From contig NC_007517.1 of assembly GCF_000012925.1 (NCBI RefSeq), positions 630,001-662,000 of the forward strand: DNA of 32,000 nt, read 5' to 3'. Below the pieces are notes generated by a model. The model made no database searches. It was not told the DNA's origin and saw nothing but the letters and a program-made list of their open reading frames with translations. Positions 815 to 31,202 of the stretch are shown here, piece after piece. The position numbers and the translations under genes are program-made. Position 1 is the first letter of the stretch. Every line of letters starts with the position of its first letter. This DNA comes from Geobacter metallireducens GS-15. Lineage in GTDB: Bacteria > Desulfobacterota > Desulfuromonadia > Geobacterales > Geobacteraceae.

Positions 815-2149
815 ATGACGGGTAACGATCTCATGCAACGCCTGGCTTCGCGGCGTGTTTCCCTGACGCTTATCCTGATGCTCCTCTGCATATGCGTCAT
901 CGGCGCATTGGTCCCCCAGAAGTCGACCCTGGAGCCGGAGAGCTATGCCGCATGGGTCGCAGCCGGAGGGGTCCACGATCTCTGGCTGAAGCTCGGATTT
1001 ACCCGCATTTTTTCAACCTGGTATTTTCTCGCGGTCATGATCCTCTTCTTCGCCAGCACCCTCGCTGCGACGATAATACGCGCCCGGGGCCTGCTGAGAC
1101 GGGAGAAGCCGGAGCCGAGCGCCGCAGCCATGGTGGGGGAGCCCTTTTCGACAACGGTTTCCGGCGTACCGCTGGAAAAGTTGAAATTGCGGGTTTCGGG
1201 CTTTTCCTGGCACGAAGGGCTCTGTGCTGACGGCAGATACCTTGCCGGCACACGCTTCGGGATCGCACGGTGGTCCGTCGTGTCGCTCCACCTGTCGTTG
1301 CTGTTGCTCATCCTCGGCGTTCTCGCGAGCCACGCCACCTATTTTCGCGGCTATATGAAGCTGGGAGTGGGGCAGAGTGAACAACTCGACGAATCGGGCT
1401 TTTTCCAGCAGGACAGGGGGATGTTTGCCCCGGCTCTCCCGCAAGGGCTCAAGATCACGCTTCTTTCCTTCGATAACCGGTATCGGGAAGCGGGTTATCT
1501 CCCCGACATTGCGGCGGATTTTCTGCTGGAAGGCGCAGCCGGAGGCCCCCTCAGGACGAGGCTCCTCCGCTCCGGGATGGTATCCTATGGTGGGCTCGAC
1601 CTCTATCTCTCCGTCCGTCGTGGCTTCGGGGTCATCCTCCACACGGTGCGCCGGGACGGTGGGCGGGCATCGGGCTACGTTAATTTCAACTTTCCCGAGG
1701 GGGGGAAAACTCCCCGGGTCCAAGCCGAAATACCCGGTTCCAATGCGCAGGTTGACGTTGAGTTCCTCTCCCGCAACCGCAGGTACGACGACTTGGCCGG
1801 GATTGCAGCACCGGCAATCCGGATGAGATTCATGCGAAACGGAGGCGTCGTTGCCGAGCGCCTCCTTCGTCCCGGTGAGGGAACGGTAGTGGAAGGGATC
1901 AGCTATACGTTCGGGAAGATAGACTACTGGTGCGACATCGCCGCCACGCGTGATCCCGGCATTTATCTCATTTACGCCGGCTTTGCCGCCGCCGCCCTGA
2001 CCCTGGTCCTTTTTGCGTTCTTTCCGACCGCGGAAATCCGGCTTCTGGGGGCAGGGGGGACGGACTCCGTTCATGTCGCTGTCCGGTGCGAGCGGTTCAG
2101 GTCGGTGGCCGAGCGGATCCTCGAACAAATCACGGAGGAAAGAACCTGA
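815..2149 (+). CDS. ccsB: ResB/CcsB (Ccs1)-family cytochrome c biogenesis protein, System II, copy 1
   Basis: 444-aa ORF. The N-terminal ..RRVSLTLILMLLCICVIGALVPQK.. matches the ResB TM1 '..G..IPQ' signature. A second TM (FSTWYFLAVMILFFAS), an H-containing TM (SLHLSLLLLILGV), a large soluble middle region and a C-terminal TM follow. AAAGGAAA RBS about 10 nt upstream. The stop overlaps the start of the next gene (ATGA). Confidence 0.8.
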   Translation: MTGNDLMQRLASRRVSLTLILMLLCICVIGALVPQKSTLEPESYAAWVAAGGVHDLWLKLGFTRIFSTWYFLAVMILFFASTLAATIIRARGLLRREKPEPSAAAMVGEPFSTTVSGVPLEKLKLRVSGFSWHEGLCADGRYLAGTRFGIARWSVVSLHLSLLLLILGVLASHATYFRGYMKLGVGQSEQLDESGFFQQDRGMFAPALPQGLKITLLSFDNRYREAGYLPDIAADFLLEGAAGGPLRTRLLRSGMVSYGGLDLYLSVRRGFGVILHTVRRDGGRASGYVNFNFPEGGKTPRVQAEIPGSNAQVDVEFLSRNRRYDDLAGIAAPAIRMRFMRNGGVVAERLLRPGEGTVVEGISYTFGKIDYWCDIAATRDPGIYLIYAGFAAAALTLVLFAFFPTAEIRLLGAGGTDSVHVAVRCERFRSVAERILEQITEERT

Positions 2150-2958
2150 TGGACGTCATTTTTTTCTGGATAGCGACAACACTTTATGCCCTGTCGGCGG
2201 TGCTGTACCTGATCCACTTCATCTTCGACAAAAAGTGGGGCGAGAAGGGGGCGGCGGCGCTGGCGGCAGGGGGGATCGTGCCCCACGTGGCTGCCGTCGC
2301 CATGCGCTGGGTGCAGGCCGGACACGGTCCCTACATCACCCGTTACGAGGTTTTTTCATCCGATGCGCTCATCGCGGTTGCAGTCTTCCTCGCGGCCGGC
2401 CTTTTGTACCGGAAGATCAGGGTCGCGGGGGCGATCGTCATGAGCGGAGCCTTTCTGATGATGGGATACGGTGCCCTGTCGGTGGATACCAAGGCTGCGG
2501 CGCCGATCACCTTCAAGAGTTGGTGGTTGGTCATCCACATCCTGTTCGGCAAGGTTATCACCGGAGCCATGCTGATTGCGGGGGCGCTTGCCGTCTTCTA
2601 TCTCTTGAAGAGCAAACGGCCCGAACGCTGGCCAAGACTTCCTGACGTGGCCTCGCTCGACGACCTCTCGTACCGCTTTCTGTCACTGGGCTTCTGCGCT
2701 CTGGGGCTGATGATCGTCGCCGGTTCCATCTGGGCCAACAGCGCATGGGGGCGATACTGGGGGTGGGATCCCATCGAAACGTGGTCTCTCATCTCCTGGA
2801 TAACCGTCGGCGCCATACTCCACCTGCGTCGTCTCCACGGGTGGCGTGGCAGAAGGATGGCCTGGCTCACCATTGCGGCACTTCTTCTCGCCATATTCAC
2901 CGCCTTCCTTATCACCATTGTCAGCCCCGGCATTCACAGCAGTTACATGGTCAAATAG
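2149..2958 (+). CDS. ccsA: CcsA/ResC cytochrome c-type biogenesis protein (heme-handling WWD protein), copy 1
   Basis: Trp-rich WWD motif WGRYWGWDPIETWSLISW followed by HLRR, plus a TM His (WWLVIHILFG). The in-frame ATG at 2149 overlaps the ccsB TGA (2147-2149). The track ORF start at 2086 lies inside ccsB and is unlikely to be used. Confidence 0.9.
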   Translation: MDVIFFWIATTLYALSAVLYLIHFIFDKKWGEKGAAALAAGGIVPHVAAVAMRWVQAGHGPYITRYEVFSSDALIAVAVFLAAGLLYRKIRVAGAIVMSGAFLMMGYGALSVDTKAAAPITFKSWWLVIHILFGKVITGAMLIAGALAVFYLLKSKRPERWPRLPDVASLDDLSYRFLSLGFCALGLMIVAGSIWANSAWGRYWGWDPIETWSLISWITVGAILHLRRLHGWRGRRMAWLTIAALLLAIFTAFLITIVSPGIHSSYMVK

Positions 2959-3228: not shown

Positions 3229-3444
3229 GTCAGGTAATTGGACGTTACCGCTCCGGCGGTTTATGTGTAGGGTGCTGGAGGTATAACCGTAAGCATCCAA
3301 GCGTGTTAACCTGTGATGGGCTGTAAATGGATTCCAGTCTTTGAGGCCGAATTAACAGTGGTTTGACAGGCTGGTGTCATAATTTTGCTTTTTTTGAACG
3401 TCTGGACGTTGTTGTGCTCATCATGATTTGACGTGGGGGAAGTC

Positions 3445-6054
3445 ATGGGTACGGAGAATAGAACGAAACGAACCTCTGGTGCAGTACCAGTGCTGGTTGC
3501 CTTTGCGGCTTCGATGGCGCTGGTACTCTTCGTTTTGTGCGGTACGACCCCTGTCCACGCTGGAACCATCACCAGCTGTTCCGGCTGTCACGGCATGCCG
3601 CCGGCGGACGCCGCCTTCCGCAACATCTCCACCGGCGGCTTTGCCGGCAATCACGGTACCCATCTCGGCGCTTCCGCCAGTGCCGGCGACTGTACCAGGT
3701 GCCACAATAATTCCGGTTATCTCAACAGCCACCGGGACGGCAAAATTCAGCTGGCGTCCAATATCAATACCTCGCCGGCTCCCGGCGGCGGCCTGTACAA
3801 GGTATCCGGATCGGCAGTCACCTTCTGGAACCAGACGTCCATTCCGGTCCCCGGGTCATGCAGCAACGTCAACTGCCACTTCGAGGCGGCAACTCCCCTG
3901 TGGGGCTCCACGGCGTTCACCTCTCCGGCCGATTGCAATAAATGTCACGGCGCCCCGCCAAGTGGCGGAACATCGGGCGCGGCCGGCAGCCACTCCCGGC
4001 ACGACCAGTACTATGCCGGTGTCGCCAACTGCCAGAAGTGCCATTCAAACAATACGACCTTCCAGCATGCCACCAGCGCCGGGCATCGCAATCTGAACAT
4101 CAGCTTCGCCGCCGCCCCCAACAACGGCAGCGGCGTCTATTCCGGCCCCCTCAATGATTACCTGCCGAGCCAGATCAATGGGTTCGGCACCTGCACCAGC
4201 CTCTACTGCCACAGTAACGGCCAGAAAAGCATGGGCAACTTCTCCACCGTCACCGTACCGACCTGGGGAACCCCCCTGCCGGCCAACTGCACGGGGTGCC
4301 ACAGGTCCAACAACGCCTCCGGCAACGCCATGGCCACCGGCAGCCATAAACGGCACGTGGGTACTGATTCGCAAGGTTATTCAAACAACATAGCCTGTGC
4401 AAAGTGCCATGCCGCCACGGTCAACGGCACCATGGCCATTGCGGACACCACCGTCCACGTCAACGCCAAGGTTAATATCAAGTTCAACAGCCTCACCACT
4501 GCCGTCAACGGCACCTATGGGGGCCAGGCGACCCCCTATGCCAAGGATCCTGGCACCGCTTACGGCCAGTGCAACAATGTCTACTGCCATTCGAACGTCC
4601 AGAACGACGGCGGGGTCGGCATAACCTACCGGCAGCCCACGTGGGGCAATGGGGCGAGCGGCACCTGCGGCACCTGTCACGGCGGCGGCAACCACTTTAT
4701 GGAGGCTGATATTGCGACCGGCAGCCATACCAAGCATCTGTCATCGACAGCGACTCCCTATACCATGGCGACACGCTGCATAGTCTGTCACAACGTCGGC
4801 GGATTGCCGTTCAACGGCAGCTGCAACAATTCGTGCCATAGCGGGCTATCGCGGCACACTGACGGGAAGATAGACCTTGCGTTCCCGTCCAATTTCGGTG
4901 CTACGGCGGCCTACAACGGCACCCCGAGGCCGGGCAACGGCTACAGCACCTGCTCCAACGTCAACTGCCACTACAGCACCACCACCCCGACCTGGGGAAC
5001 GTCGACCCCCATCGGCTGCCTCGGCTGCCACACCCTTGCCGTGCTGCGGGCCAGCGGCGCCCATGCCAAGCATATCAGCGCCACCGCCTCGCCGACCATG
5101 TACAACTACACCGCCAACCGCTCCACGGCGACGGAATACGACTTCGGCTGCTCCAACTGCCATCCTGTCACCGCAACGGGCAATCACTACAATTCGGTCA
5201 TCAACGTGACCCTCAAGAAGGATGAGGCCGGGGTGGGCTCCCTGCGCGCCAAAAACAGTGCCACGGCGGTCGGCGTCAACGTCGCCAACAGCGGCATCAC
5301 CGGCACAACCAAAGTCAGCATCAGGTGCTCGATGGCCTACTGCCACAGCAACGGCAACGCCGCCGGCCTGGTCTACGCCACCACGCCGGACTGGTACGGC
5401 GGCAGCTTCACCGGCGACCGCTGCGCCAACTGCCACGGCAACGCCCCCAACACCACCATTGCCGGTTCCAAGTCCCACTACAACAACCGCTTCCTCGGCT
5501 ACACCAGCAACCCGGGGGGGCACCAGATTGCAATCCATGCCATGGGGATCTACAGCAGCCCGAGCGGCCTGGCCAAGGCGGGCACCGGCAATGACAGCAG
5601 CCACGGCAATGCCGCCACATCAACAACCATCGGCTGCAATATCTGCCACTACCTGACGGTCACCACCGCCCGCAACGATGACAACTTTGTCTGCAAAACC
5701 TGCCACTATGCCGGCAATACCGTGGGCGCCCTGGCCGGAAACCCGGCCGCCATCGCCGACCGGTCGAAGCACGTCAACGGAACGGCCGATGTGGCGTTCC
5801 AGCCGGTTACCGTGCTTTCCAAGGCGCAGATGCGGCAGATCTACTTCACGTCATACAGCGGCACCTTCAAGCGCAACGGCGTGTACAAGACCTCCGGCGC
5901 GTACGACTCCGCCAAGGCAGCGCTCAACACGGCAACCATGTGGGACGGCGGCAGCAAGACCTGCTCCAATGTCGCCTGCCATAACAGCCAGAGCGTGAAA
6001 TGGACCGATAATGACGGCGCGACAACGTGTGTCAATTGCCATAACGCCATGTAA
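3445..6054 (+). CDS. Secreted multiheme c-type cytochrome with repeated CxxxxCH...CxxCH units (Geobacter-type domain)
   Basis: Signal peptide (..VPVLVAFAASMALVLFVLCGTTPVHA|GT). Manual count gives 14 CxxCH, 6 CX4CH (CSNVNCH, CTSLYCH, CNNVYCH, CSNVNCH, CSMAYCH, CSNVACH) and 1 CX3CH (CNNSCH). The ATG at 3445 is preceded by GGGGGAAG; a GTG at 3433 is an alternative start. Confidence 0.9.
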   Translation: MGTENRTKRTSGAVPVLVAFAASMALVLFVLCGTTPVHAGTITSCSGCHGMPPADAAFRNISTGGFAGNHGTHLGASASAGDCTRCHNNSGYLNSHRDGKIQLASNINTSPAPGGGLYKVSGSAVTFWNQTSIPVPGSCSNVNCHFEAATPLWGSTAFTSPADCNKCHGAPPSGGTSGAAGSHSRHDQYYAGVANCQKCHSNNTTFQHATSAGHRNLNISFAAAPNNGSGVYSGPLNDYLPSQINGFGTCTSLYCHSNGQKSMGNFSTVTVPTWGTPLPANCTGCHRSNNASGNAMATGSHKRHVGTDSQGYSNNIACAKCHAATVNGTMAIADTTVHVNAKVNIKFNSLTTAVNGTYGGQATPYAKDPGTAYGQCNNVYCHSNVQNDGGVGITYRQPTWGNGASGTCGTCHGGGNHFMEADIATGSHTKHLSSTATPYTMATRCIVCHNVGGLPFNGSCNNSCHSGLSRHTDGKIDLAFPSNFGATAAYNGTPRPGNGYSTCSNVNCHYSTTTPTWGTSTPIGCLGCHTLAVLRASGAHAKHISATASPTMYNYTANRSTATEYDFGCSNCHPVTATGNHYNSVINVTLKKDEAGVGSLRAKNSATAVGVNVANSGITGTTKVSIRCSMAYCHSNGNAAGLVYATTPDWYGGSFTGDRCANCHGNAPNTTIAGSKSHYNNRFLGYTSNPGGHQIAIHAMGIYSSPSGLAKAGTGNDSSHGNAATSTTIGCNICHYLTVTTARNDDNFVCKTCHYAGNTVGALAGNPAAIADRSKHVNGTADVAFQPVTVLSKAQMRQIYFTSYSGTFKRNGVYKTSGAYDSAKAALNTATMWDGGSKTCSNVACHNSQSVKWTDNDGATTCVNCHNAM

Positions 6055-6151
6055 CCGGTAAGGTATGCGCTTCGTACAGGGGGGAGGTGTTTTTGCCCCT
6101 GTACGTCGTAACAAAGTAACGGACTTTCCAGCACTGAACGAGGGAACTTAT

Positions 6152-9100
6152 ATGGGAACGACAATCGCCAGGCAGATCAGGAGCATGGGGCTGCGGACTA
6201 AAATCGGCATCATTGTGATGCTGGTCGTGGGCTGTTTCCTGTATCAGATCATGTTCAAGCCGATGATTGGCGATACAGCCACCCAGACCTATTATTTCAC
6301 CACTGATTCCACATCGGTGAACCTCGGCGCCGATGGCAGCACCAGCACCGCGGCGTCGCTCGGCGGCAAAATATCCATGAAGGTCGGTGTCTATGCCTTC
6401 TCCCGCAGTGTCAGCGCCGCGTCCAATACCTCCGAACAGAGGATGATCAGCGCCTATGGGCCGGTCTATGCCGCCAAGCAGACCATTAACGCGCCTGCCG
6501 TCACGATCGGCGTGAGGGACCGCAACGGCACCGCAAATGCCATTTACTGGAAGGCCTACGTCTACGCCTATAACCCGGCGGTGGCCCCCGGCACCGGCAA
6601 CCCCACGGCTACCGGTGCCGCCAATAACGCGAGATTGCTCTGGACATCGGACGAGATGGAGGCCCATCCCTCGGTGCAGACGCCGCTGGACATGACCTTC
6701 ACCAATCCTGCACTGCAGACCATAGATGCCGGACAGCGGATCAAGGTGGTCATCACCGCCCGCCTGGCAAGTACCGCCTCGTCGGCCCGCCTCTTCTGGG
6801 GGGGCGGAAGCAACTATTCGTTCTTTACCGTCACCGAAGCCCCCTATGTGGCTGATTCGGTTACCGTCTCAAACCTGGCCGATTACTATGCCGGCGGTCT
6901 CACCTCCGTCACCCAGGGGGACACCAATGTTCCCATGCTTAGATTCGACCTGTACACCAACGTGGCCGGGGGGGTCAACTGGTCGGGCGGGCTTCTGGAT
7001 AAGATCGGCACCAATACCAGCGTCCTCAACCCCCTTCTGCCGGTGGACGAACCGGGAGACGTCTCCTTTTCGATCTACCGGGATGCCGATAATGACGGCG
7101 TCTTCGAACCCACCGACACCCTGATCGGCGGACCATACAATTTCAGCCAGTTGACCAAACAGGGGTATTCGTTGCCGACTCCGGAAGCACTTACCGCCAC
7201 GCCCCGGCGCTATTTCATCACTTACACCATTCGCAAGAACGCGACCTATAACACCACTGTCGGCGCCCGCATTGTGGATGGCAGTTATTTCACCGTCGAC
7301 GCCGCGGCGACGAACGGCGTGCGAAATGTGACCAGCACGTCGTCCTCAACGCCCCTCATCCAGTATGGGGGCACCCCGGTCGTCAAGAACTACGCGGCGG
7401 ACTGGGATGCCGGCACGTCACTGACGAACATCGCCGAAACCGGCGGGCCGGGCTCCACAACCTCCACCTGTATTACCAGAACCACGGCAGGGTCGGCATT
7501 CCCGCTGGTCGGCCTGCTCAACTACCCCAACCACTCTTGTGCCAGTGTGGCGGGGCAGAACTACAGCAACACCAGCGGCAGCACCCAGCCGGATTTCGTC
7601 AGGCTCTATTTCAGCGGGGACGGCTACCACTCCGATATGCTGTCCATCAAGGGGCGCAGTTTTACCTACCGGCTCTATACCCCGTCAGGCGGCGGCACGG
7701 TCACCCTGCAGATGTTCTACGTCACCAGCGGGGGCGTGCGGGTTAATGCCCCGATTGCATCGACCTACAAATCCACCGGTACTCTCAGCCAGACCATTAC
7801 CACCTCCCTGTCCGGTCAGGATTTTTCCAATGTCCCCCTTGGCGCCCGCCTCGGCATCCAGATCGGCGTCACCGCCAATGCGCAGATCGGCCTCGGCGGC
7901 GCGGTCGGCGCCCAACTGCAGGTGGAGGAAACGGCGGCCCTGAATGAAAACGTCGATGTGGGCGACGGTTTCCCCAGTGTCAATGCCAACGTCTATGCGG
8001 GCGACACCAGCAAGGTGATCGATTCGTTCACCTTGAGCGCTTCCAAGGCAAAGACCGTCTCTTCGATTTCGATCAAGGGCAACCCCCTGTTCAACAGCAC
8101 AAATATCAAAAATGTCTGGATTTATCAGGACAACTCGACCGGCGGCATGCTTGGGGCCCTTGACGGCACCGACACCCTGATCGGGTCCACCTCCGTAATC
8201 ACCGGCAACGTCGCGACGGTTTCGGTCGGCAGCCTGGCCATCGACAACAAGACCAAGCGATTCCTGGTGGTCGTCGATATCGGCGACACCCCCAACACCA
8301 ACGTAATCCTGAACGCTCTGGTCAGTGACCTGGCGGTTGTCACTTCCGGCACCATCGGCGAGAACAGCGACAGTTCGTCGGCGAATCTGACGATCCTGCC
8401 GACCACGACGGTGAGCGGCGGCACTGCCGAGCCTCCCGGCGTGATCGTTCCTTCCGGCGCCGGCGCCACCAAGCTGGATGCGTTCAATCTTGCCACCAAC
8501 GGCGGGGTCAACGACACGTTCTCCAGCGTCACGGTCACGCTTTCGACGACCAGCACCCTGCCCGCGGGCAAGGTCATCTCCGACTACGTTGCGCGGCTTG
8601 ATATCATCAAGGCTGACGGCACTTCCTTCGGGCACCTGACTTCTCCCACCCAGGTCAATAACTGGCAGGTCACGACCACCGGCCTGGCCGCCACCACCAC
8701 GCCCACCGATTATTACGTGGCCGTTACTCCCAAGGCGGGCCAGGGGATTACCTACGACGTCAAGGCCCAGGTTGTCTCGGTGGTCCACTCCAGGACGACC
8801 AACCGGCTGCTGCTGAGCGACCCGTCCAGCGCAACGGTCATCATGGACCAGCAGCCGCCGACCGACCCGACCCTGACTGTCGCCACCGGCACCTATCACA
8901 ATGATATTGACCGCGCCGAGATCAACCTGAACTGGACCACCGCGACCGATACCAGCGGGAGCGCGGTCAGCTACGTTGTCGTGCGTGGCCTGGGGAATGC
9001 GCCGCCGCCACGCAATTGCACGGTGGACAACGTAAAGACCTTCCCGGTTTACTCCGGCACGGGCACATCACTTATCGACAAAAACCTGGATGAAGGCATT

Positions 9101-12100
9101 TCGTACGGCTACCGCGCCTGTGCGGTGGACTCGGTCAACAACGTCAGCGTGGGAACCGCCGGCAGCGCCATCGCCAGTATCAAGAACAGATGTACGGAGC
9201 TTCCCTCACTTGAGATCAATCCCAATGCCTCATACATCAAGGCCGGCAATACGCTGGGCCTGGATGTCGCCATCACCAGCAACGACACGGGCGTCTGTGC
9301 GGCAACCACCTACACGCTCTCGATAGTGGGCACCGACATCGACGACAGCAACTACACCGTCTCCACATTCAGCGGCAACAACTTCATAATCCCGACCATG
9401 GGGTCGCAGTATACGAAGCTGAACATTACCGCGAAGCCCGGCGCGGTTCAGGGGGCGGTCAAGACCTTCCAGGTGAAGGTCGCCAAGAGCTCCGGCGGAG
9501 AAACCCTGCACGCGGACCCGGTCTATGTCACGGTCAACAAATATGGCACCATGATGCACAGCAGTCTGCAACTGGGCACCACCAAGTACGGTATCTGGGG
9601 GAAGAATTACGACTGCGCCACCTGCCATTCCCCCACCGCCACCAATATCAAGCAGGTCAAAAACAGCATCGCCACCCCGACCGGTAACCGGCCGGTCGTG
9701 TTCAATATTCTCTCCACCGCTTCCAGTGCCAATGTGGCTGGTGTTTTCGGCAATGACCACAGAAGCGGGACAGCCACCACCAATGTGTGCGAAGTCTGCC
9801 ACCACAATGCGCGTTTCCACCAGTACAGCTCGTCGAAGGTGACCTGGAAGGACCATAACAACAACGAAGACTGCATGAAGTGCCACTCGCACAAGCTCGG
9901 TTTCAAGACGGTGGCGCAGGCGGGGTCGTGTACCGACTGCCACGGCTATCCCCCCACCATCAAGGAGCAGCTGGTGGTGCCGACGACCAACGTGCTCTCC
10001 TCGTATGCAACCAATGCCGGCTCCCATGGCAAGCACAACGACCGCGGCCTCAAGTGCCAGGCCTGCCACAGCAACGGCAACCACCTGGTCACCGCCGTAC
10101 CGGACAAAAACATCAATATGGGGTTCAAGGTCAACGGGACCAGCTTCCCCGGTTGGTTCGGCCAATACACCACCGGCATAATGCGTTCGCTGACGCCCCG
10201 TAACGGCTATACCTTTGCGACCGCCCCGGGCACGACGGTGCAGCAGGCACCCGGCACCATAATCAACTGCAATGTCTACTGCCACGGCTGGGACGGCAAT
10301 GGCGGCTACAATACCGATCCGGCCTGGACCGGCATCAGCCAGGTCGGCTGCGGCTCATGCCATGCCGCCACCAACGACCAGCCCCCCACCTCCGGCAGCC
10401 ACCACAAGCATGCCAGCAATGAACCCGGTTTCGGCAACGGCATTGCCTGCAGCAAGTGCCACGGTTTCCGCAATTACTCCACCAGCTCGGCCCACATCAA
10501 CGGCAATGTGGAATGGGATCTCTCCACGCTGCCTCCCGGAACCTTCGGGCTGGCCCTTTACAGGGGCGTGGACAAGGGGAACACCGGCGCTCCGGCCCCC
10601 ACGCCGCCGGGCAGTTACGGTTCCTGCTCCAACCTTTACTGCCACAGCAATGTCCAGAGCAACAACGGCACCGGTCCCCCGACGTCCTATTCCACCCCGA
10701 CCTGGGGGGGGACGACCACCTGCAACAGTTGTCACCAGGCGCAGCCGAATGTGACCGGCGGGCATCCGCAGCATGCCGGCGCCGGCGTGACGGGCTTTGA
10801 TTGCCGCATCTGCCATGGAAACGGCGGTGACGCCAACCCGCTCAACCATGCCAACGACTACATAAACTTCCAGTTCGGCGGCCTTGCCGAGAACACGCAC
10901 TATTCCTACAGCTCGGCCAAGGTGCCCGGCTCCGCCTCCTATGGCACCTGCTACAACGGCAACTGCCACGGCTTGCGCCGTCCCAAGACCGGCCCGACCG
11001 CGCTGACCTGGGGCCCGGCCAATGACGCTATCCCGCTTTGCGACAAGTGCCACACTACGGATCCATCCCTCAAAAATGGCTTCTACAGCACCATGGGCCC
11101 CAACGGGACCACCTCGAACACGGACCCGTACGTTGGCGCCCACTTCCAGCATATCACCTCGATGCCGTTCAAGCTGTCGTCCCAGTACGATTGCTCCGAA
11201 TGCCACAACAAGCCGACCGGCCCCTACACTCCCGGCCATATCGACTCGCAGCTGCCGGCCGAGCTGACTTTCGGCGCAACCGCATCGAGCGGCGCGGTCC
11301 TGACCGGTTACACCAGCGCCCAGCACCAGCCCGGCTACAACTACGGTGCCCACCAGTGCAGCAATATCTGGTGCCACGGCTCCGGCATGGACTCCGTCGA
11401 GGGGACCGGCCTCTACGGTTCCGCCGTGAGCGACGGAGCCACCCCCAATGCCAGCCGGATCGCCTCGCCGGTCTGGAATGCACCGTTCCTGAACGGTACC
11501 ACCGCCGACTGCAACAAGTGTCACGCATCACCGCCGCCGGCACCGCTCCCCGGATACAATCACTGGGACGATGACAACAGCCGCCCCTACCAGGCCAACC
11601 AGTGCATCAATTGCCACAAGCATGTCAATGCGGCCGGCAACGGCTTCACCAAGCCGGAAATCCACGCCAACGGCGTTGTCGACAGCTGTCTGACCTGTCA
11701 CGGCCTCCCGCCGACCGACAACAGCATGACCAACCCGCCGATTAATGCCCTGAGTGCCGGCATGACCGGCGCGCACCAGGGGCATTTCCTGAACCCGAAT
11801 ATCGGCAAGCGCTGCACTTTCTGCCACTACAACAATTCCGGCGACATGCCCAGCTACAAGCTGGAGATCGGTTTCAACGCCTTTGGCGGCAAGGTCCGCC
11901 GCGGAACGTTCTACGGCTACTCCACCCTGACCAACAGCTATTCCCAGCCGATTGTCTACTTCGCGACCATCACCAGCACCACCGTGCGGCGGACCACGAA
12001 CACGGCCAAGCTCAATACCTGTGAGAACGTGTACTGCCACGGTGGCGGCTCGGGCGCGGCCCTGCCACCATTGGGGGGCGGCAGCAACACCAAGCCGGAC

Positions 12101-14803
12101 TGGGAGCTGGGCTATACCGAGGCCACCTGCGGCAGCTGCCACGGCGTGACCGGCGAAACCTACCGGACCAGGGGGTCCCATGGCGCCCATGTGGGCACGC
12201 TCTTTGGCGAGCCGAAACTGGCCTGCTCCAACTGCCACGGCGTCAAGGAGAACAACTACCACGTGAACGGCCAAGTGGAGTGGGAGTTCTACACCTCCGC
12301 CAAGCGGATGAACCAGATTGCGGTCAACGACAGCTTTAAAGACAGCCTCGGCAATGTTGTCGTTCCCGGCTACAAAGCCGCCGGCGCCTCGTCCTTTGCG
12401 GCCAAAGGCGGCACCGGCAACCTGGCGCCCAGCGCCGCGTACGGCACCTGCCAGGTCTACTGCCACAGCGACGTTTACGATCACCAATTCAAGGCGATCA
12501 CCTGGGGTAGCGGCGCCACCACCTGCAACTCCTGCCACCGGGACCAGACCTCGGCCGGCAGGTACACCGGCGCGCACCAGAAACATACCGCCAGTTCGGC
12601 CAACGGAGGCTACGGCATCGACTGCGTCATGTGCCACTACGGTTCCGGCGCCGGCAACCCGCTCCATGTGAACGGCACGGTTGACATCATCTTCAACTCG
12701 TCAGTGGTCGGTCCCAATGGCGTGTATGCACCCGGCGCCACCGAAGGGACCGGTACCTGCAAGAATATCCTCTGCCACGTTTCCGACGCAACCACCGGTC
12801 CGGCCTGGAACGGCGGATCTGCCAGCGGCAGCTATGCCACTGGCACCAACAAGCCGACCTGCATCGGCTGCCACAGCGGCGAGGTCGGCGGCCGCACCGC
12901 GGTTATCCCGCAGTTTGCCGGCGCGTCGCACCACGTCCAGGGTGTAACCATGAGCGCCACCTACTGCTACCCGTGCCATATGGAGGCAAACGCCGACGGC
13001 ACCGCCAATGCCACCTACCATGACCGGACCACCGGCAAGTCGGTTGATCTGGTGCTCTATGGCAACGGCACGCGCGGCACGGTCTTCACCAGGTACACGG
13101 CCGCGGGAAGCGCTACCCGCAAGCGGACGGAATACGCCAAGATCAACAACGTCTGCATCGGCTGCCACAGCACCAAGAACAATGCCACAACGCCCTTCAG
13201 CGCCAGCGGCGATACCAGGACACCCAAGACCTATGCCTGGGACAACAGCAGCATCTTCAACCGGTACAGTTCCACCGCCACCACGCTGTGGGGCAAGGTC
13301 ACCGGCAACGACACGGTGAAGAAGGGGCTTAACAAGGCCTTCTCCGCCCATGGCAATGCCAGCGGCAACCAGCGCGGCTGGGCGTTCGGCTCCTACACGG
13401 GCGGCCCGAAACACAGCAACACCAGCGGCGCCGTCAACAATGTGCTCTGCTTCGACTGCCACAACTCCCACGGCACCGTGGCCAGCGGCATCATGACCAG
13501 CTACTCCAGCGCCACGGGCCGCTACAGCGGCGGCATGCTCAAGACCACCGTCCAGGGGGTCGGCGGCTACAACTCCACCTATGCGCCGGTGGCAGGCGGC
13601 GATTCGGCCGCGCCCAACAGGAACGCCTACAACACGGGTGCGTCCCTCTGCTTCGACTGCCACAACAACAAGACGTCCAATACCTCCATGCCGTGGGGCT
13701 ACAATGACACCTTCGGCTCCAACCAGCCCATCTACGGCTTCCATGACAAGCCGTACTTCGGCAACTACTCCACCTTTGCCATGACGGTCACCTATCCGTA
13801 CAAGGCCAGCAACCCTGGCAACAAGGGGGGCCACTACGGCCCGTCGTCACCGCTGACCACTGCCGTCACCCAGCGGACGTTCGCGAACGGCATCAAGGAC
13901 AATCCGTACTCGGCCGGGGTTTCCTCGCCCATCAACGGCCTCTGTACGCCGTGCCACGACCCCCATGGCGTCAGCAAGAACACGACCTATGTGAGCGACC
14001 GCAACTACGGCGTGCCGCTCCTCAAGGGGACCTGGGTCACCTCCCCCTACCGGCAGGATTCGGCACCGCGGAACACCAACGAAGCCCGGGGCGGCAGTAC
14101 CCATTCATCGTCCTATGTGCCCATTACCGTCGGCAGCACGCCCCGGTACTTCATCGACCAGAACAGCATGCAGGCGGGAACGGTGGGCGAACCGACGACC
14201 GCCCGGTCCTGGACGTTCACCACTTCCGCCGCGACACTGCAGACCACGGCCGATACCCAGTTCGCCGGGCTCTGCACCGGCTGCCACAACAAGTCGGTGC
14301 TCAACAACACGGCGGCGGTGACCGGTGCCCCCGGTTCGACCGGAAGCTGGAAAGCCATGACCCGGATCCACAACACCGTCGATGGCTGGGCACTCACAAC
14401 GGGCAGCGGCGGCAACGTGAGCAACAAAGTGCATGCCTTCACCTGCTCCAAGTGCCACACGCCCCACAACGCCCGGCTACCACGGCTCATGGTGACCAAC
14501 TGCCTCGATGCCAAACATCGCGGCGGGGTGGCTGCCGGCGGGAATCCGGTGGAGTACTCGAAATGGTATCAGAGCGGGGCCGGCAAGGGACGGTTCCCTG
14601 TAGGCGGCGGCGGGTTCAAGTCCCGTGGCTCGGCGATCAACCCGGGGACCTGGTTCTTCGGCAAGTCCCAGAGCACGGTCCAGAACGCGGCGCCGGCACT
14701 GACCCTGACCACCCAGACCCAGTGCCACAACACGGCAACAGCCGGTGGCATAACCTACACCAACTACACGACGCAGCACTGGAACAACAAAACACCGTGG
14801 TAG
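6152..14803 (+). CDS. Giant (2,883 aa) putative lipoprotein: adhesin-like beta-rich N-terminal region fused to a 34-site multiheme c-type cytochrome
   Basis: Single uninterrupted ORF. The ATG at 6152 has a GAGGGAA RBS 5 nt upstream. Lipobox LVVG-C has its Cys codon at 6233-6235. Up to the first heme motif (CATCH at 9614-9628) there are no heme-binding motifs and only a few isolated Cys; this part is T/S/N/G-rich and includes an FN3-like segment (about 8849-9185). After that I count 27 CxxCH, 5 CX4CH and 2 CX3CH. Confidence 0.9.
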   Translation: MGTTIARQIRSMGLRTKIGIIVMLVVGCFLYQIMFKPMIGDTATQTYYFTTDSTSVNLGADGSTSTAASLGGKISMKVGVYAFSRSVSAASNTSEQRMISAYGPVYAAKQTINAPAVTIGVRDRNGTANAIYWKAYVYAYNPAVAPGTGNPTATGAANNARLLWTSDEMEAHPSVQTPLDMTFTNPALQTIDAGQRIKVVITARLASTASSARLFWGGGSNYSFFTVTEAPYVADSVTVSNLADYYAGGLTSVTQGDTNVPMLRFDLYTNVAGGVNWSGGLLDKIGTNTSVLNPLLPVDEPGDVSFSIYRDADNDGVFEPTDTLIGGPYNFSQLTKQGYSLPTPEALTATPRRYFITYTIRKNATYNTTVGARIVDGSYFTVDAAATNGVRNVTSTSSSTPLIQYGGTPVVKNYAADWDAGTSLTNIAETGGPGSTTSTCITRTTAGSAFPLVGLLNYPNHSCASVAGQNYSNTSGSTQPDFVRLYFSGDGYHSDMLSIKGRSFTYRLYTPSGGGTVTLQMFYVTSGGVRVNAPIASTYKSTGTLSQTITTSLSGQDFSNVPLGARLGIQIGVTANAQIGLGGAVGAQLQVEETAALNENVDVGDGFPSVNANVYAGDTSKVIDSFTLSASKAKTVSSISIKGNPLFNSTNIKNVWIYQDNSTGGMLGALDGTDTLIGSTSVITGNVATVSVGSLAIDNKTKRFLVVVDIGDTPNTNVILNALVSDLAVVTSGTIGENSDSSSANLTILPTTTVSGGTAEPPGVIVPSGAGATKLDAFNLATNGGVNDTFSSVTVTLSTTSTLPAGKVISDYVARLDIIKADGTSFGHLTSPTQVNNWQVTTTGLAATTTPTDYYVAVTPKAGQGITYDVKAQVVSVVHSRTTNRLLLSDPSSATVIMDQQPPTDPTLTVATGTYHNDIDRAEINLNWTTATDTSGSAVSYVVVRGLGNAPPPRNCTVDNVKTFPVYSGTGTSLIDKNLDEGISYGYRACAVDSVNNVSVGTAGSAIASIKNRCTELPSLEINPNASYIKAGNTLGLDVAITSNDTGVCAATTYTLSIVGTDIDDSNYTVSTFSGNNFIIPTMGSQYTKLNITAKPGAVQGAVKTFQVKVAKSSGGETLHADPVYVTVNKYGTMMHSSLQLGTTKYGIWGKNYDCATCHSPTATNIKQVKNSIATPTGNRPVVFNILSTASSANVAGVFGNDHRSGTATTNVCEVCHHNARFHQYSSSKVTWKDHNNNEDCMKCHSHKLGFKTVAQAGSCTDCHGYPPTIKEQLVVPTTNVLSSYATNAGSHGKHNDRGLKCQACHSNGNHLVTAVPDKNINMGFKVNGTSFPGWFGQYTTGIMRSLTPRNGYTFATAPGTTVQQAPGTIINCNVYCHGWDGNGGYNTDPAWTGISQVGCGSCHAATNDQPPTSGSHHKHASNEPGFGNGIACSKCHGFRNYSTSSAHINGNVEWDLSTLPPGTFGLALYRGVDKGNTGAPAPTPPGSYGSCSNLYCHSNVQSNNGTGPPTSYSTPTWGGTTTCNSCHQAQPNVTGGHPQHAGAGVTGFDCRICHGNGGDANPLNHANDYINFQFGGLAENTHYSYSSAKVPGSASYGTCYNGNCHGLRRPKTGPTALTWGPANDAIPLCDKCHTTDPSLKNGFYSTMGPNGTTSNTDPYVGAHFQHITSMPFKLSSQYDCSECHNKPTGPYTPGHIDSQLPAELTFGATASSGAVLTGYTSAQHQPGYNYGAHQCSNIWCHGSGMDSVEGTGLYGSAVSDGATPNASRIASPVWNAPFLNGTTADCNKCHASPPPAPLPGYNHWDDDNSRPYQANQCINCHKHVNAAGNGFTKPEIHANGVVDSCLTCHGLPPTDNSMTNPPINALSAGMTGAHQGHFLNPNIGKRCTFCHYNNSGDMPSYKLEIGFNAFGGKVRRGTFYGYSTLTNSYSQPIVYFATITSTTVRRTTNTAKLNTCENVYCHGGGSGAALPPLGGGSNTKPDWELGYTEATCGSCHGVTGETYRTRGSHGAHVGTLFGEPKLACSNCHGVKENNYHVNGQVEWEFYTSAKRMNQIAVNDSFKDSLGNVVVPGYKAAGASSFAAKGGTGNLAPSAAYGTCQVYCHSDVYDHQFKAITWGSGATTCNSCHRDQTSAGRYTGAHQKHTASSANGGYGIDCVMCHYGSGAGNPLHVNGTVDIIFNSSVVGPNGVYAPGATEGTGTCKNILCHVSDATTGPAWNGGSASGSYATGTNKPTCIGCHSGEVGGRTAVIPQFAGASHHVQGVTMSATYCYPCHMEANADGTANATYHDRTTGKSVDLVLYGNGTRGTVFTRYTAAGSATRKRTEYAKINNVCIGCHSTKNNATTPFSASGDTRTPKTYAWDNSSIFNRYSSTATTLWGKVTGNDTVKKGLNKAFSAHGNASGNQRGWAFGSYTGGPKHSNTSGAVNNVLCFDCHNSHGTVASGIMTSYSSATGRYSGGMLKTTVQGVGGYNSTYAPVAGGDSAAPNRNAYNTGASLCFDCHNNKTSNTSMPWGYNDTFGSNQPIYGFHDKPYFGNYSTFAMTVTYPYKASNPGNKGGHYGPSSPLTTAVTQRTFANGIKDNPYSAGVSSPINGLCTPCHDPHGVSKNTTYVSDRNYGVPLLKGTWVTSPYRQDSAPRNTNEARGGSTHSSSYVPITVGSTPRYFIDQNSMQAGTVGEPTTARSWTFTTSAATLQTTADTQFAGLCTGCHNKSVLNNTAAVTGAPGSTGSWKAMTRIHNTVDGWALTTGSGGNVSNKVHAFTCSKCHTPHNARLPRLMVTNCLDAKHRGGVAAGGNPVEYSKWYQSGAGKGRFPVGGGGFKSRGSAINPGTWFFGKSQSTVQNAAPALTLTTQTQCHNTATAGGITYTNYTTQHWNNKTPW
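9614..12778 (+). repeat. Protein-level array of about 7 degenerate heme-binding units (CxxCH .. HxxH .. CxxCH .. H-x-N-G .. CX3-4CH .. W-G) inside the giant gene
   Basis: The motif order recurs through this segment, for example CGSCH..GSHHKH..CSKCH..HINGNVEW..CSNLYCHSN..TPTWG, then CNSCH..GGHPQH..CRICH..CYNGNCH, and so on. The repeat is visible in the protein only; the DNA copies are diverged. Confidence 0.7.
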
Positions 14804-14937: not shown

Positions 14938-14961
14938 GGCGGAGACCGCAAGGGGAGACAG

Positions 14962-14995
14962 AGGTGGGGCCTGTTCATGGTCCCACCTTTTGTCA
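14962..14995 (+). terminator. Rho-independent terminator closing the cytochrome operon
   Basis: AGGTGGGGCC (14962-14971), 7-nt loop TGTTCAT, then GGTCCCACCT (14979-14988). This is a 10-bp stem with one G.U pair, followed by TTTGTCATTT. Confidence 0.7.
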
Positions 14996-15132: not shown

Positions 15133-16167
15133 ATGCTGAACAAATGTTTGTTGCTGACCGGTGCCCTGATTGCCGTGCTGACCGCCCCCCTGGCCGCTCC
15201 GGCCTACGAATACGACCAGGAGCAGACCCGGAAGCTGATCGAGAACATGGTCAGGGACCTCGGCGGGCATGACGGCCTGCGCGCGAACAGCGGTAAAGTC
15301 ATGCGCTGCGTCCATGGCGGCACGAAAAAGGTGACCATCGTTCAAAACGGTGCGCTGACGACCTACAACGGGGTGTACAGCAACTGCCGCGAAAATGATT
15401 CCATCAGGGACGGCATTTACGACATCGCCCTCGAAGGAAATGAAGTCACCGTCAGTTCCTCAAAACGCTCCATCAACGGTGAACTGTTCGATGCCGCCAT
15501 GGGGGGTGACGCGAAAGCCGTCAAAAGATTGGTCAAGGCCAAGGCCGATGTCAATTATACGGAAAGCATCAAGAAAAGCGGCGGCGGTCACATCGACGAG
15601 TGGACGCCGCTCATGTCGGCTGTGGCCTCGGGAAGCCTGGATTCCGTGAAGCAGCTGGTCACCGCGGGGGCCTGGGTCAACTACATGAACAGCATGGCCG
15701 TGAACGCGCTCTGGATCGCCGCCAATAAGGGCGATGTCGCCATCGTTAAATATCTCCTGAAGTCGGGCGCTTATGTCAATAACCGGAACTTCGAGGATGT
15801 CACGCCGCTCATGGCGGCTTCCATGAACGGGCATGGGGAGGTGGTTAAAGCCCTGATCGCCGCCCGGGCAAAGCTCGATTACGTCCACAGCGGGGGTGAT
15901 ACCGCCCTGATGTTCGCCCTGGCAGGCAGGCACACGGCTGTGGCGCGGCTCCTGCTGGCTGCCGGCGCTGATGTGAACGTGAGGAACCGCGACGGACTCA
16001 CGGCCCTGCACATCGCCGTGTCGGAAGGGAATCTGGAGATGGTGCGCGGGCTTCTGAAACGTAAGGCCGATGTGTCGGCCACAATGGACAGCGGCAAGAA
16101 CGCGCTGGATATAGCCCGAGCCAGGGGAAATGCCGCCATCGTGGAACTGCTGGAAAAGGGACGATAA
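15133..16167 (+). CDS. Secreted (periplasmic) ankyrin-repeat protein
   Basis: Sec-type signal peptide MLNKCLLLTGALIAVLTAPLAAPA|YE. After a 110-aa N-terminal domain there are about 7 tandem 33-aa ankyrin repeats (..TPLMSAVASGSLDSVKQLVTAGAWVN.., ..TPLMAASMNGHGEVVKALIAARAKLD.., ..TALHIAVSEGNLEMVRGLLKRKADVS..). GGAG lies 7 nt upstream of the ATG. Confidence 0.9.
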   Translation: MLNKCLLLTGALIAVLTAPLAAPAYEYDQEQTRKLIENMVRDLGGHDGLRANSGKVMRCVHGGTKKVTIVQNGALTTYNGVYSNCRENDSIRDGIYDIALEGNEVTVSSSKRSINGELFDAAMGGDAKAVKRLVKAKADVNYTESIKKSGGGHIDEWTPLMSAVASGSLDSVKQLVTAGAWVNYMNSMAVNALWIAANKGDVAIVKYLLKSGAYVNNRNFEDVTPLMAASMNGHGEVVKALIAARAKLDYVHSGGDTALMFALAGRHTAVARLLLAAGADVNVRNRDGLTALHIAVSEGNLEMVRGLLKRKADVSATMDSGKNALDIARARGNAAIVELLEKGR

Positions 16168-16168
16168 C

Positions 16169-18682: not shown

Positions 18683-18684
18683 AC

Positions 18685-20325: not shown

Positions 20326-20372
20326 GCCATGGAATGCGCTCCCGCCATAGCGTTGGCTGACGGTAGGGTCGG

Positions 20373-21593
20373 ATGAACTGGAAGCTTATCCGCATCATCG
20401 ATGTCTGGCTGGGGATCCCGATACTTTTCGGGATTTTTGTTGCCGGGCGGCTCTTCGGGAAGCGGCAGCCGCAGCGGCCGGCCACGGTCAGGCGCATCCT
20501 GCTGATCAAGTTCTGGGGGATCGGCAATCTTTTCATGATGCTCCCGTCGGTTCAGGCGCTGCGTGCGGCCCACCCGGCAGCCGCCATCGATGTTCTCTCG
20601 CTGGACAGCAACCGGGATGCCATCCGGGCCTGCGGCGTGTTTGACGGCGTCGCCACCATAACCACCGCCGGTCCGCTCCGCTTCCTGTTATCGTGGCGGC
20701 GGGCCGTCGCCCTGCTGAGAAGGAACCGCTACGACATCATCATCGACTTCGAGCAGTTCGCGCGGTTTTCCGCGCTGGTTGCCGGCCAGATCGGGGCCGC
20801 GGAAATTATCGGGTTCCGGACCGAGGGACAGCATCGGAGCCTCAATTTCACCGTTCAGGTCCCGTACGACAATGCGATCCATGTCACGCGTTCCTTCCAT
20901 GCCCTCGTTGCGGCTGCCGGAGCGGCACCGGTTGATCGCCTGCCGGCGGCCGGGATCAGCGGCAGCGAAAATCTGCGCGAACGCGGCAAGGAACTGCTCG
21001 CGCAAATCGGAATCGGGCCGGATGAGCTCTGCGTCGTCATGCATGCCGGCACCAGTGGCAATTTCAGTGAGCGCCGCTGGCCGCCCGAACGGTTTTCCTC
21101 CCTTGCCGATACGCTTCATGCCGGGCACAATGCCCGCACCATCTTCACCGGAGCGGCTGAAGAGGCCTTTCTGACCCGTGAAGCGGCAAGGCATCTGCAC
21201 CGGCCGTTGTCCGCCCTAGATCTGGGGGGAAAGCTGAAATTCCGGGACTACCTCGCCCTCATCGCGGCTGCCGATCTGGTGGTTTCGGCCGACACGGCGG
21301 CCGTGCACATGGCATCGGCGGTCGGAACACCGGTGGTCGGGCTGTACGGTCCCAACACGCCACGCCTCTACGGCCCGTGGGGAAGGGGGGGCGTGGCCGT
21401 CTGTCAGGGACTTGACTGTAGCCCCTGCATCACCAACTTCAACGCCAAGCTCCATGTCTGTCGCCACCCCGCGGGACGGGGGGCCTGCATGGGGGCCATC
21501 GGGGTGGAAGATGTGGCGGCTGCCATCCGGCGGAATTTCCTGGAGCCGGATGCCCCGTTTCTGCTCACCAGGCTCTCCGGGGGTATGCGGTGA
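20373..21593 (+). CDS. Glycosyltransferase family 9 (heptosyltransferase-like)
   Basis: N-terminal ILLIKFWGIGNLFMMLPSVQALRAAHPAAAIDVL and C-terminal LIAAADLVVSADTAAVHMASAVGTPVVGLYGP both match the GT9 pattern (..IxxSxxGD..P..; ..NDSGPMHLAAAxGxPxVxLFGP). Confidence 0.8.
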   Translation: MNWKLIRIIDVWLGIPILFGIFVAGRLFGKRQPQRPATVRRILLIKFWGIGNLFMMLPSVQALRAAHPAAAIDVLSLDSNRDAIRACGVFDGVATITTAGPLRFLLSWRRAVALLRRNRYDIIIDFEQFARFSALVAGQIGAAEIIGFRTEGQHRSLNFTVQVPYDNAIHVTRSFHALVAAAGAAPVDRLPAAGISGSENLRERGKELLAQIGIGPDELCVVMHAGTSGNFSERRWPPERFSSLADTLHAGHNARTIFTGAAEEAFLTREAARHLHRPLSALDLGGKLKFRDYLALIAAADLVVSADTAAVHMASAVGTPVVGLYGPNTPRLYGPWGRGGVAVCQGLDCSPCITNFNAKLHVCRHPAGRGACMGAIGVEDVAAAIRRNFLEPDAPFLLTRLSGGMR

Positions 21594-25613: not shown

Positions 25614-25691
25614 GATGCTTGTGACGATGATACGTGGTGCCGGATGGCGATGCGATGAGCCCTGTTATTTATCCTTGGCGGATTTCGAATC

Positions 25692-30592: not shown

Positions 30593-30620
30593 CTATCTAT
30601 TTCATGGGGAGTTGCATGAC

Positions 30621-31139: not shown

Positions 31140-31140
31140 G

Positions 31141-31185
31141 CGCCGGTTGACCCGGGGGCGGTACGAATCAACCGGCGATTTTTTC
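31141..31185 (+). terminator. Terminator-like hairpin between the lipoprotein gene and ccsA copy 2
   Basis: CGCCGGTTGA (31141-31150), a 17-nt loop, then TCAACCGGCG (31168-31177). This is a perfect 10-bp stem followed by ATTTTTTC. Confidence 0.6.
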
Positions 31186-31202
31186 AGAGAGGTATGCGTT
31201 TC

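Follow-up and report, generated by a model that had tools for sequence, protein, structure and literature searches.

The 32,000-nucleotide stretch of Geobacter metallireducens GS-15 DNA analyzed here (hereafter, the window) contains one giant open reading frame (ORF), which raises the question of what gene it is and what its product might do for the cell. An exact-sequence look-up matched the product to ABB30824.2 / WP_004512279.1 of GS-15, encoded by omcN (Gmet_0581; 6152..14803, + strand, stop codon included). It is predicted to be a high-molecular-weight c-type cytochrome, 2,883 aa long and carrying 34 heme-binding motifs. The order of genes in the window (CcsA, 21-heme cytochrome, 34-heme cytochrome, ankyrin, spermine-synthase-like and, further on, rSAM-SPASM) is that of the Gmet_0579-0586 annotation (supplement, PMC10989804). 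With the same sequence, the same neighbors and the same heme count, there is no difference between the two: the giant ORF is omcN, a gene that others have annotated, named and knocked out.

Sequence identity, the 34 motifs and genomic context place Gmet_0581 in the OmcN orthologous group together with GSU2898, the OmcN of a different species, G. sulfurreducens. GSU2898 also has 34 hemes (bioRxiv 10.1101/2022.05.22.492868) and is 63% identical to Gmet_0581, itself published as a 34-heme cytochrome (Holmes et al. 2022, PMC10989804). It adjoins GSU2899 as Gmet_0581 adjoins Gmet_0580; both G. sulfurreducens proteins are annotated 'lipoprotein cytochrome c' and both were detected in proteomes (PMC7894505). 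Our likening of GSU2898 to Gmet_0581, and with it the orthology, rests on the published 63% and the shared 21-heme/34-heme gene pair. The original prediction had not recognized the architecture as that of a characterized protein, a view it was prepared to give up if this domain order had already been studied functionally. Deletions of this OmcN orthologue are published, and the claim of novelty therefore fails. OmcN has been tested genetically, and our literature searches found neither biochemical nor structural work on it, nor a heme stain. Neither a survey of Desulfuromonadia cytochromes nor a 2026 paper in mBio mentions OmcN in its main text.

The maximal ORF in the ORF listing of the window runs from 6065 to 14803. 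A start at the ATG at 6152 is supported by a Shine-Dalgarno sequence, GAGGGA, 6 nt 5' of it and by the alignment, in which an equivalent 'MG..' opens all orthologues. The current GenBank/RefSeq product likewise has 2,883 aa, and an older version of 2,912 aa is on record. A word-indexed homologue search with the N-terminal module gave a single partial match, and no protein in one long match list from such searching exceeded ~1,130 aa. This kind of search may therefore miss relatives of full length. A genome scan and an exhaustive search found them: five full-length orthologues of 2,818-2,875 aa, among them that of the cultured strain G. hydrogenophilus DSM 13691, and more distant relatives of 2,335-3,155 aa. 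All 34 motifs are kept column for column in each of the five orthologues. An artificial fusion of a surface-protein gene to a cytochrome gene, by mis-assembly or a sequencing frameshift, has the unusual size in its favor and nothing else, and we reject it with near certainty: the uninterrupted ORF is common to six independent genomes, its conservation is even over both halves (0.52-0.71 per 100 aa) and across the junction, the identical protein is recorded for strains GS-15 and RCH3 on 33 contigs, and the distant relatives also carry the N-terminal module and then the hemes, in the same order. This comparison answers the concern about an assembly join that had been raised with the original prediction. 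Motifs, orthologues and structural model agree that a genuine, conserved gene encodes, in a single polypeptide, a long non-heme β-rich module and a 34-site heme array.

The heme motifs had been counted by hand as 27, 5 and 2, and the count is exact: there are 27 CxxCH, 5 Cx4CH and 2 Cx3CH motifs, the first at residue 1155 with none earlier. They are distributed over three regions. Residues 1150-1310 (9599..10081, + strand) form a cytochrome c7/c3-like unit in Pfam, with five CxxCH motifs at 1155, 1213, 1241, 1260 and 1302; Cytochrome_C7 scores 79 bits, with its best stretch at 1202-1264, and Cytochrom_c3_2 also matches. Residues 1370-2230 (10259..12841, + strand) hold seven GSu_C4xC__C2xCH units, each with a Cx3-4CH motif followed by CxxCH motifs. 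Scores for the CxxxxCH/CxxCH family lie above both curated cut-offs, at 148.3 bits over seven stretches for TIGR01904 (cut-off 27) and 44.9 bits for PF09698 (cut-off 21.7), which makes OmcN a member of the family that includes OmcG/OmcH and Gmet_0580, with seven copies of the domain. BLAST of segments revealed a large internal duplication (1232-1615 vs 1805-2217), and the region is paralogous to the 21-heme Gmet_0580, with 25% identity over 1259-2129. Unlike OmcN, Gmet_0580 has no non-heme N-terminal module.

The remaining residues, 2230-2883 (12839..14800, + strand), form a conserved C-terminal module with eight hemes. The module is also found free-standing, at ~600 aa, in many lineages, where it is annotated 'doubled CXXCH' (PF09699). 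At E <= 1e-10 it has 258 homologues, many of them 580-620 aa long and with coverage of 84-100%; in a 67-sequence alignment the heme motifs, C2784 and C2858-H2859 are invariant. Its AlphaFold model, built in the apo form, is of moderate quality (pLDDT 62.6), which makes the lack of any significant Foldseek match to the PDB uninformative. By sequence, too, the heme region has no relative in the PDB. Outside the motifs, 39 His residues are invariant among the six orthologues, a number sufficient for all hemes to be bis-His ligated. On the motifs, these conserved His residues and adjacent System II genes, Gmet_0581 is a predicted c-type cytochrome. A β module of ~1,100 aa combined with the 8-heme C-terminal module sets apart a sub-family of giants, with lengths of 2,335-3,155 aa and 34-51 motifs.

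The heme-free part of the protein, residues 43-1130 (6278..9541, + strand), was modeled by AlphaFold2 as all-β, with about seven β-sandwich domains at approximately 43-232, 237-405, 410-597, 601-748, 751-900, 905-1010 and 1015-1130. The alignment behind the prediction was built from search matches. Over the N-terminal 1,130 aa the mean pLDDT is 80.9, and all strands lie past residue 43. Residues 1-1150 are rich in T (13%), G (10%), S (10%) and N (6%) and poor in Cys, and three Cys pairs within the β domains (440/463, 956/990 and 1014/1049) are invariant. The β-type segments had been described as internally repeated. BLAST self-comparison detected no repeat within the module, but profile comparison did relate domains 2 and 4 (237-405 and 601-748; hhalign probability 90%, E = 1.5e-6), so the description stands for this one remote pair.

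The FN3-like domain of the original prediction is borne out at residues 905-1010 (8864..9181, + strand). There the orthologue profile matches the sidekick-2 FN3 domain 1wf5 (E = 0.002), and homologues of residues 890-1056 carry Pfam fn3 at up to E = 1e-74, two of which we checked (P0131 and P0155). In the model this stretch consists of strands alone, arranged as a β-sandwich, and it draws more matches in the exhaustive search than any other region. Compared directly with Pfam, whole and in six pieces, the N-terminal module itself gave no match, fn3 included. Gmet_0581 has been described in print as having an 'immunoglobulin-like domain' (PMC10989804).

Residues 1-35 (6152..6256, + strand) form a conserved leader, in which MGxxxAxxIRxM..K precedes a hydrophobic helix and which is probably a Sec signal-anchor. 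It is the single hydrophobic segment of the N-terminus, modeled as helices at 2-11 and 14-35. The string LVVGC, which the original prediction took for a lipoprotein signal, is present inside it, V-V-G-C being residues 25-28. Hydrophobic residues go on past the Cys, however, and the leader is kept in the orthologues and in distant giant cytochromes (P0122-P0136) while the Cys is not: one of the five orthologues has it, and the other four have G-I or G-F. For Gmet_0581 a published table lists 1 TM, PS51257 'no' and signal peptide 'no' (supplement, PMC10989804); its product is named 'lipoprotein cytochrome c' in UniProt. By eye we saw no obvious A-x-A signal-peptidase site, and the orthologues share no conserved lipobox. 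Judged from these sequences, the lipoprotein anchor does not appear to be conserved, and what is conserved instead is the N-terminal helix.

Upstream of omcN lies a System II cytochrome c synthetase pair (815..2958, + strand), recognized by Pfam ResB and Cytochrom_C_asm matches and by TM counts. Its ResB-like gene spans 815-2149 and its CcsA-like gene 2086-2958; the latter is Gmet_0579, the annotation of which is also published. Next comes Gmet_0580 (3433..6054, + strand), a CxxxxCH-family cytochrome with a signal peptide, identified from Pfam and the motif list. Its 14 CxxCH, 1 Cx3CH and 6 Cx4CH motifs agree with its publication as a 21-heme cytochrome (PMC10989804), and it matches PF22113 at 42.5 bits (cut-off 30). 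It ends 97 nt before omcN, with which it probably shares a transcript, and each of the five orthologous loci likewise has it directly upstream of the giant gene. After the omcN stop, a consensus scan gave weak evidence of a terminator-like hairpin of 12 pairs (14960..14990, + strand), followed by Gmet_0582 (15133..16167, + strand), an ankyrin-repeat protein by Pfam Ank with a signal-like N-terminus, published as 'Ankyrin, signal yes' (supplement, PMC10989804). An ankyrin gene follows the giant gene in the five orthologous loci as well, so that the triad of 21-heme cytochrome, giant and ankyrin genes is found in 5/5. We found no porin-like or MtrAB-like gene adjoining omcN in the window, and an Rfam scan of the window gave no match.

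Deletion of the gene had been suggested as a check, and such mutants have already been published for both species, with phenotypes that are weak or absent. G. metallireducens also has other 34-heme genes, Gmet_0571 and Gmet_2470. Gmet_0581 is highly expressed (PMC10989804), and its deletion only delayed the establishment of co-cultures with Methanosarcina subterranea (Holmes et al. 2022, PMC10989804). In G. sulfurreducens, deletion of omcN produced no phenotype with soluble or insoluble acceptors, according to the accounts of Aklujkar 2013 given in bioRxiv 10.1101/2022.05.22.492868 and PMC6013743. In G. soli, OmcN was more abundant on insoluble acceptors (PMC6013743).

Taken together, it is likely that omcN encodes a high-molecular-weight cytochrome of the CxxxxCH/CxxCH family, composed of a helix, a stalk of about seven domains and a 34-heme chain, that acts as an accessory component of extracellular electron transfer. 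OmcN would be exported by Sec, as supported by the single N-terminal helix and the three invariant Cys pairs in the β domains, and its hemes would be attached outside the cytoplasm by System II, with the adjacent ResB/CcsA paralogues perhaps serving the Cx3-4CH sites. Closely spaced hemes would form a long chain that both conducts and stores electrons, and the string of β-sandwiches would serve as a stalk or spacer, adhesion being unproven. OmcN may be an accessory, largely redundant player in extracellular electron transfer, located in the envelope or at the surface of the cell. The published genetics fit such an accessory role: the gene is expressed, its deletion does no more than delay direct interspecies electron transfer to a single methanogen, and G. 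sulfurreducens can dispense with its orthologue on soluble and insoluble acceptors alike.

In a second reading, which we consider unlikely, OmcN is periplasmic and held in the inner membrane by an uncleaved signal-anchor, its stalk and hemes serving as an electron reservoir or 'capacitor', or as a relay across the periplasm from quinol oxidases of the inner membrane to conduits of the outer membrane. With no obvious cleavage site and no conserved lipobox, the protein could indeed stay anchored in the inner membrane by its one conserved hydrophobic helix, and the published table with 1 TM and no signal peptide agrees. The want of a porin-like neighbor in the window points the same way, and the weak phenotypes of deletion mutants would be in keeping with a buffer. 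Against it, about seven β domains and 34 hemes would probably outreach the periplasm, by our estimate of length. Also counting against it is the name OmcN, which we take to reflect an outer-membrane assignment by its discoverers. The periplasm has been put at roughly 170 Å, and a 27-heme relative is estimated to reach ~350 Å (PMC11492766). Published predictions of location differ: G. soli OmcN was predicted to be 'periplasmic' (PMC6013743), but the protein of strain KN400 to be 'extracellular', and two tables of one paper give 'outer membrane/surface' and 'unknown' for Gmet_0581 (PMC10989804).

The original prediction favored a lipoprotein at the cell surface, with an adhesin as its N-terminal module that binds minerals, electrodes or partner cells, and with the 34-heme wire delivering electrons to the bound target. 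Strings of β-sandwiches do occur in many surface proteins, and sub-domains of this module are also present in other large cytochromes, as well as in giant proteins of Elusimicrobia. The VVG-C of the window sequence fits a lipobox, the UniProt name accords with one, and the sole effect seen on deletion was on electron transfer to a methanogen, a process that depends on contact (PMC10989804). Several results nevertheless leave this reading rather doubtful. Beyond the missing lipobox Cys in 4/5 orthologues and the PS51257 'no', Pfam and NCBIfam identified no adhesin domain (Big, cadherin-like or RTX/BAP-type) in residues 1-1150, even piecewise. Foldseek with the model of the N-terminal module matched only generic tandem Ig/FN3/MG (macroglobulin) arrays, at TM 0.09-0.16, and no adhesin-specific fold, which leaves the term 'adhesin' without specific backing. 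An N-terminal anchor would moreover keep the β module close to the membrane, with the hemes at the far end, an arrangement that suits a stalk and not a distal binding tip. Deletion of omcN in G. sulfurreducens, as far as those secondary accounts describe it, also had no effect on insoluble acceptors.

A bolder scheme, which strikes us as improbable, would make the OmcN giants a porin-independent route through the envelope. The helix would sit in the inner membrane, a stalk estimated at 25-30 nm would cross the periplasm, and the hemes would reach as far as the outer membrane or past it; the exported ankyrin protein and ResB/CcsA would be assembly factors, and C2784...C2858-H2859 would form a 35th, non-canonical heme site.

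Shewanella MtrC, OmcA and MtrF are decaheme surface lipoproteins that combine β and multiheme domains and function in extracellular electron transfer. OmcN, as the accessory cytochrome that we favor, is alike in principle, pairing β domains with multiheme domains, but it has 34 hemes rather than 10, its β domains all precede the hemes instead of being interleaved with them, and its lipobox is not conserved. We rejected placement in the MtrC/OmcA family, as OmcN has no match to PF22113 (MtrC/MtrF domain II/IV). OmcZ/Gmet_0930, which has an Ig-like fold (PMC10989804), shares the idea of non-heme β domains fused to a heme chain at or beyond the cell surface, with no detected sequence relationship. 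OmcZ is an 8-heme protein that polymerizes into filaments, whereas there is no evidence of OmcN polymerizing. Methane-oxidizing archaea possess large multiheme cytochromes with S-layer-type domains. These too share the idea of a non-heme module joined to hemes, and again no sequence relationship to OmcN was detected.

The architecture of OmcN is confirmed and was already known. Our analysis corrects the first reading in three respects: the gene is known and named, the lipoprotein anchor appears not to be conserved, and there is no adhesin fold. By itself, the re-analysis raises no new question. Cytochromes of the OmcN type rank with the largest heme proteins of a model electroactive bacterium. 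To their description we add a domain map, which runs from the N-terminal helix through about seven β-sandwich domains, the c7-like unit and the seven units of CxxxxCH type to the 8-heme C-terminal module, together with the recognition that this last module is widespread and has no solved relative, and that the genes for the 21-heme cytochrome, OmcN and the ankyrin protein form a conserved triad.

The giant open reading frame (ORF) is a single frame on the + strand (maximal extent 6065..14803) that, from an ATG at 6152 with GAGGGA 6 nt upstream, encodes 2,883 aa. An exact-sequence look-up identified the product as ABB30824.2/WP_004512279.1, an entry for Geobacter metallireducens GS-15 and also strain RCH3, named "Lipoprotein cytochrome c" in UniProt and "CxxxxCH/CxxCH domain-containing protein" at NCBI. 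It is preceded by ResB-like, CcsA-like and 21-heme cytochrome genes and followed by genes for a signal-bearing ankyrin protein, a multi-TM spermine-synthase-like protein (11 hydrophobic segments in our scan versus 13 TM in a published table; PMC10989804), a TPR membrane protein, a GT9 glycosyltransferase and two radical-SAM/SPASM proteins. This order equals the published annotation, in which Holmes et al. 2022 (PMC10989804) list Gmet_0580 with 21 hemes (main-text tables) and Gmet_0582 (ankyrin), Gmet_0583 (spermine synthase, 13 TM) and Gmet_0586 (rSAM/SPASM protein; supplement). The giant ORF is therefore Gmet_0581, described there as a putative 34-heme outer-surface cytochrome. The original prediction did not recognise the architecture as that of a characterised protein; it is in fact known and belongs to a named locus of the reference genome, in the OmcN group of the Geobacter CxxxxCH family.

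A scripted count found 27 CxxCH, 2 Cx3CH and 5 Cx4CH motifs in OmcN, 34 in all and exactly the numbers first counted by hand. The motifs begin at residue 1155; residues 1-1150 are T/G/S/N-rich with seven Cys, and the heme region contains 4% Cys and 4.8% His. With residues 1-1150 as query, a scan of species-representative genomes recovered full-length relatives at five loci (48-71% identity), in three Geobacter MAGs, one Desulfuromonadales MAG and cultured Geobacter hydrogenophilus DSM 13691. Each is an unbroken ORF, 2,818-2,875 aa long, whose motif count is again 27/2/5. In the six-way alignment all 34 motifs match by column, and conservation (0.52-0.71 per 100 residues) is even in both halves and over the junction. 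An assembly join or frameshift, for which a check had been proposed, is thus ruled out.

Within the heme region, Pfam Cytochrome_C7 (79 bits) marks a 5-heme c7-like unit, and TIGR01904 scores 148 bits, above its cut-off of 27, over seven GSu_C4xC__C2xCH units. Residues 1232-1615 and 1805-2217 (window 9845-10996 and 11564-12802) form a large internal duplication of ~400 aa at 28-36% identity, indicating that the array grew through duplicated multi-unit blocks. The 21-heme protein encoded upstream is paralogous to the heme region, with which it shares 25% identity across ~870 residues. Residues 2230-2883 constitute a conserved 8-heme module that also occurs as free-standing ~600-aa proteins in many lineages (258 matches at E <= 1e-10, 38-58% identity). 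This module matched nothing in the PDB by sequence, or by fold using a model of moderate quality (pLDDT 62.6). The 39 invariant non-motif His of the heme region are sufficient for bis-His ligation of all hemes. C2784 and C2858-H2859 (window 14501-14728), which belong to no CxxCH motif, never vary among the six orthologues or across the 67 aligned sequences of the C-terminal module family. A disulfide is one possible role for them; another is a 35th heme site of a non-canonical kind, with a long spacer or a single Cys.

Residues 43-1130, scanned whole and in pieces, matched no Pfam or NCBIfam family. An AlphaFold2 model built from an 18-sequence alignment (mean pLDDT 80.9) is helical over residues 2-35 and then all beta, with about seven beta-sandwich domains. 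Foldseek against the PDB returned only generic tandem Ig/FN3/macroglobulin-domain proteins (TM 0.09-0.16), such as alpha-2-macroglobulin, complement C3, mastigonemes, contactins and cytokine-receptor ectodomains. With generic folds and no family, we rejected assignment to an adhesin class. The FN3-like domain that had been proposed maps to residues 905-1010. Of the suspected internal repeats, domains 2 (237-405) and 4 (601-748) are remotely related by hhalign (90% probability), but BLAST detects none. Three invariant Cys pairs (440/463, 956/990 and 1014/1049) are consistent with an extracytoplasmic location. At E <= 1e-3, an exhaustive search with this module yielded 179 proteins, among them eight giant relatives (2,335-3,155 aa, 34-51 heme motifs) with an OmcN-like leader. 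Sub-domains also occur in both of two other large cytochromes checked and recur weakly in giant Elusimicrobia proteins. Among Elusimicrobia MAGs, heme-free giants of 5,346, 3,150 and 1,920 aa (L006 2-16042, L007 3-15127) carry the domain of residues 150-419 at 26-33% identity.

As to the predicted lipoprotein signal, the string LVVGC is present, but just one of the five orthologues retains its Cys and the other four have G-I or G-F; lipidation therefore does not appear to be a conserved property. What orthologues and more distant giant cytochromes share is a leader in which MGxxxAxxIRxM..K precedes a hydrophobic helix. In giant CxxxxCH cytochromes of different lineages (2,335-3,155 aa; window 6152-6256 and P0122-P0136), it extends to MGxxxAxxIRGMxxWxK, with YQG often following the helix. 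No NCBIfam or Pfam signal-domain model matches this leader, which may be a family-specific targeting signal.

The triad of 21-heme cytochrome, OmcN and ankyrin genes is conserved at the five orthologous loci. The ankyrin-repeat protein, Gmet_0582 (15133-16167, +), carries a signal peptide and may serve as a partner or assembly factor; at each of these loci such a gene stands downstream of the giant one. The window contains two separate ResB-like/CcsA-like System II pairs (815-2958 and 29273-32000, both +), and the second CcsA-like ORF, from ~31200, extends past the window's end. Such paralogues adjoining Cx3-4CH cytochromes may be dedicated heme lyases. Beyond the ankyrin gene, a block of envelope-modification-type genes (16130-26372, +) encodes the spermine-synthase-like protein and two multi-TM proteins bearing TPR repeats at their C termini, together with a GT9 heptosyltransferase, a pair of radical-SAM/SPASM proteins and a GT2. 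The block is in parts syntenic with loci L002 and L004; a tie to the T/S/N-rich stalk, for example via glycosylation, is speculative. Next comes a gene (27213-29216, +) for a secreted protein of 667 aa that combines CarboxypepD_reg-like domains with a NosD-like right-handed beta-helix; a homologue starts at the end of locus L001.

We propose that OmcN would be exported by Sec and its hemes attached by ResB/CcsA, the Cx3-4CH sites possibly by the adjacent paralogous pair. The hemes would form a continuous chain, conducting or storing electrons, and the string of beta-sandwiches a stalk. Published predictions of location conflict: outer membrane/surface and unknown (both PMC10989804), periplasmic (G. 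soli, PMC6013743) and extracellular. An inner-membrane-anchored periplasmic reservoir or relay, to which the G. soli prediction would correspond, seems rather unlikely to us. The surface adhesin-wire originally envisaged is improbable: with an N-terminal anchor, the beta module would be membrane-proximal and the heme array distal, which fits a spacer better than a distal adhesin tip. Membership of the MtrC/OmcA type, defined by PF22113, was rejected for want of any PF22113 match.

A Gmet_0581 deletion strain reportedly originated with Smith et al. 2013. The deletion experiment suggested with the original prediction has already been published in two species. In G. metallireducens, Gmet_0581 is highly expressed with all partners, and its deletion slowed establishment of co-cultures with Methanosarcina subterranea only, an effect gone after four transfers (PMC10989804). 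In G. sulfurreducens, omcN deletion left reduction of soluble and insoluble acceptors unaffected, according to the accounts of Aklujkar et al. 2013 in two citing papers (bioRxiv 10.1101/2022.05.22.492868; PMC6013743). OmcN and its neighbor GSU2899 are seen in proteomes (PMC7894505), and in G. soli insoluble acceptors are associated with higher OmcN abundance (PMC6013743).

These data show the architecture, its conservation and its setting beside a paralogous cytochrome and System II genes. What was first observed is confirmed; the interpretation holds in part, and the novelty does not, as this striking architecture was already known. Published genetics suggests that OmcN is accessory and redundant in Geobacter extracellular electron transfer.
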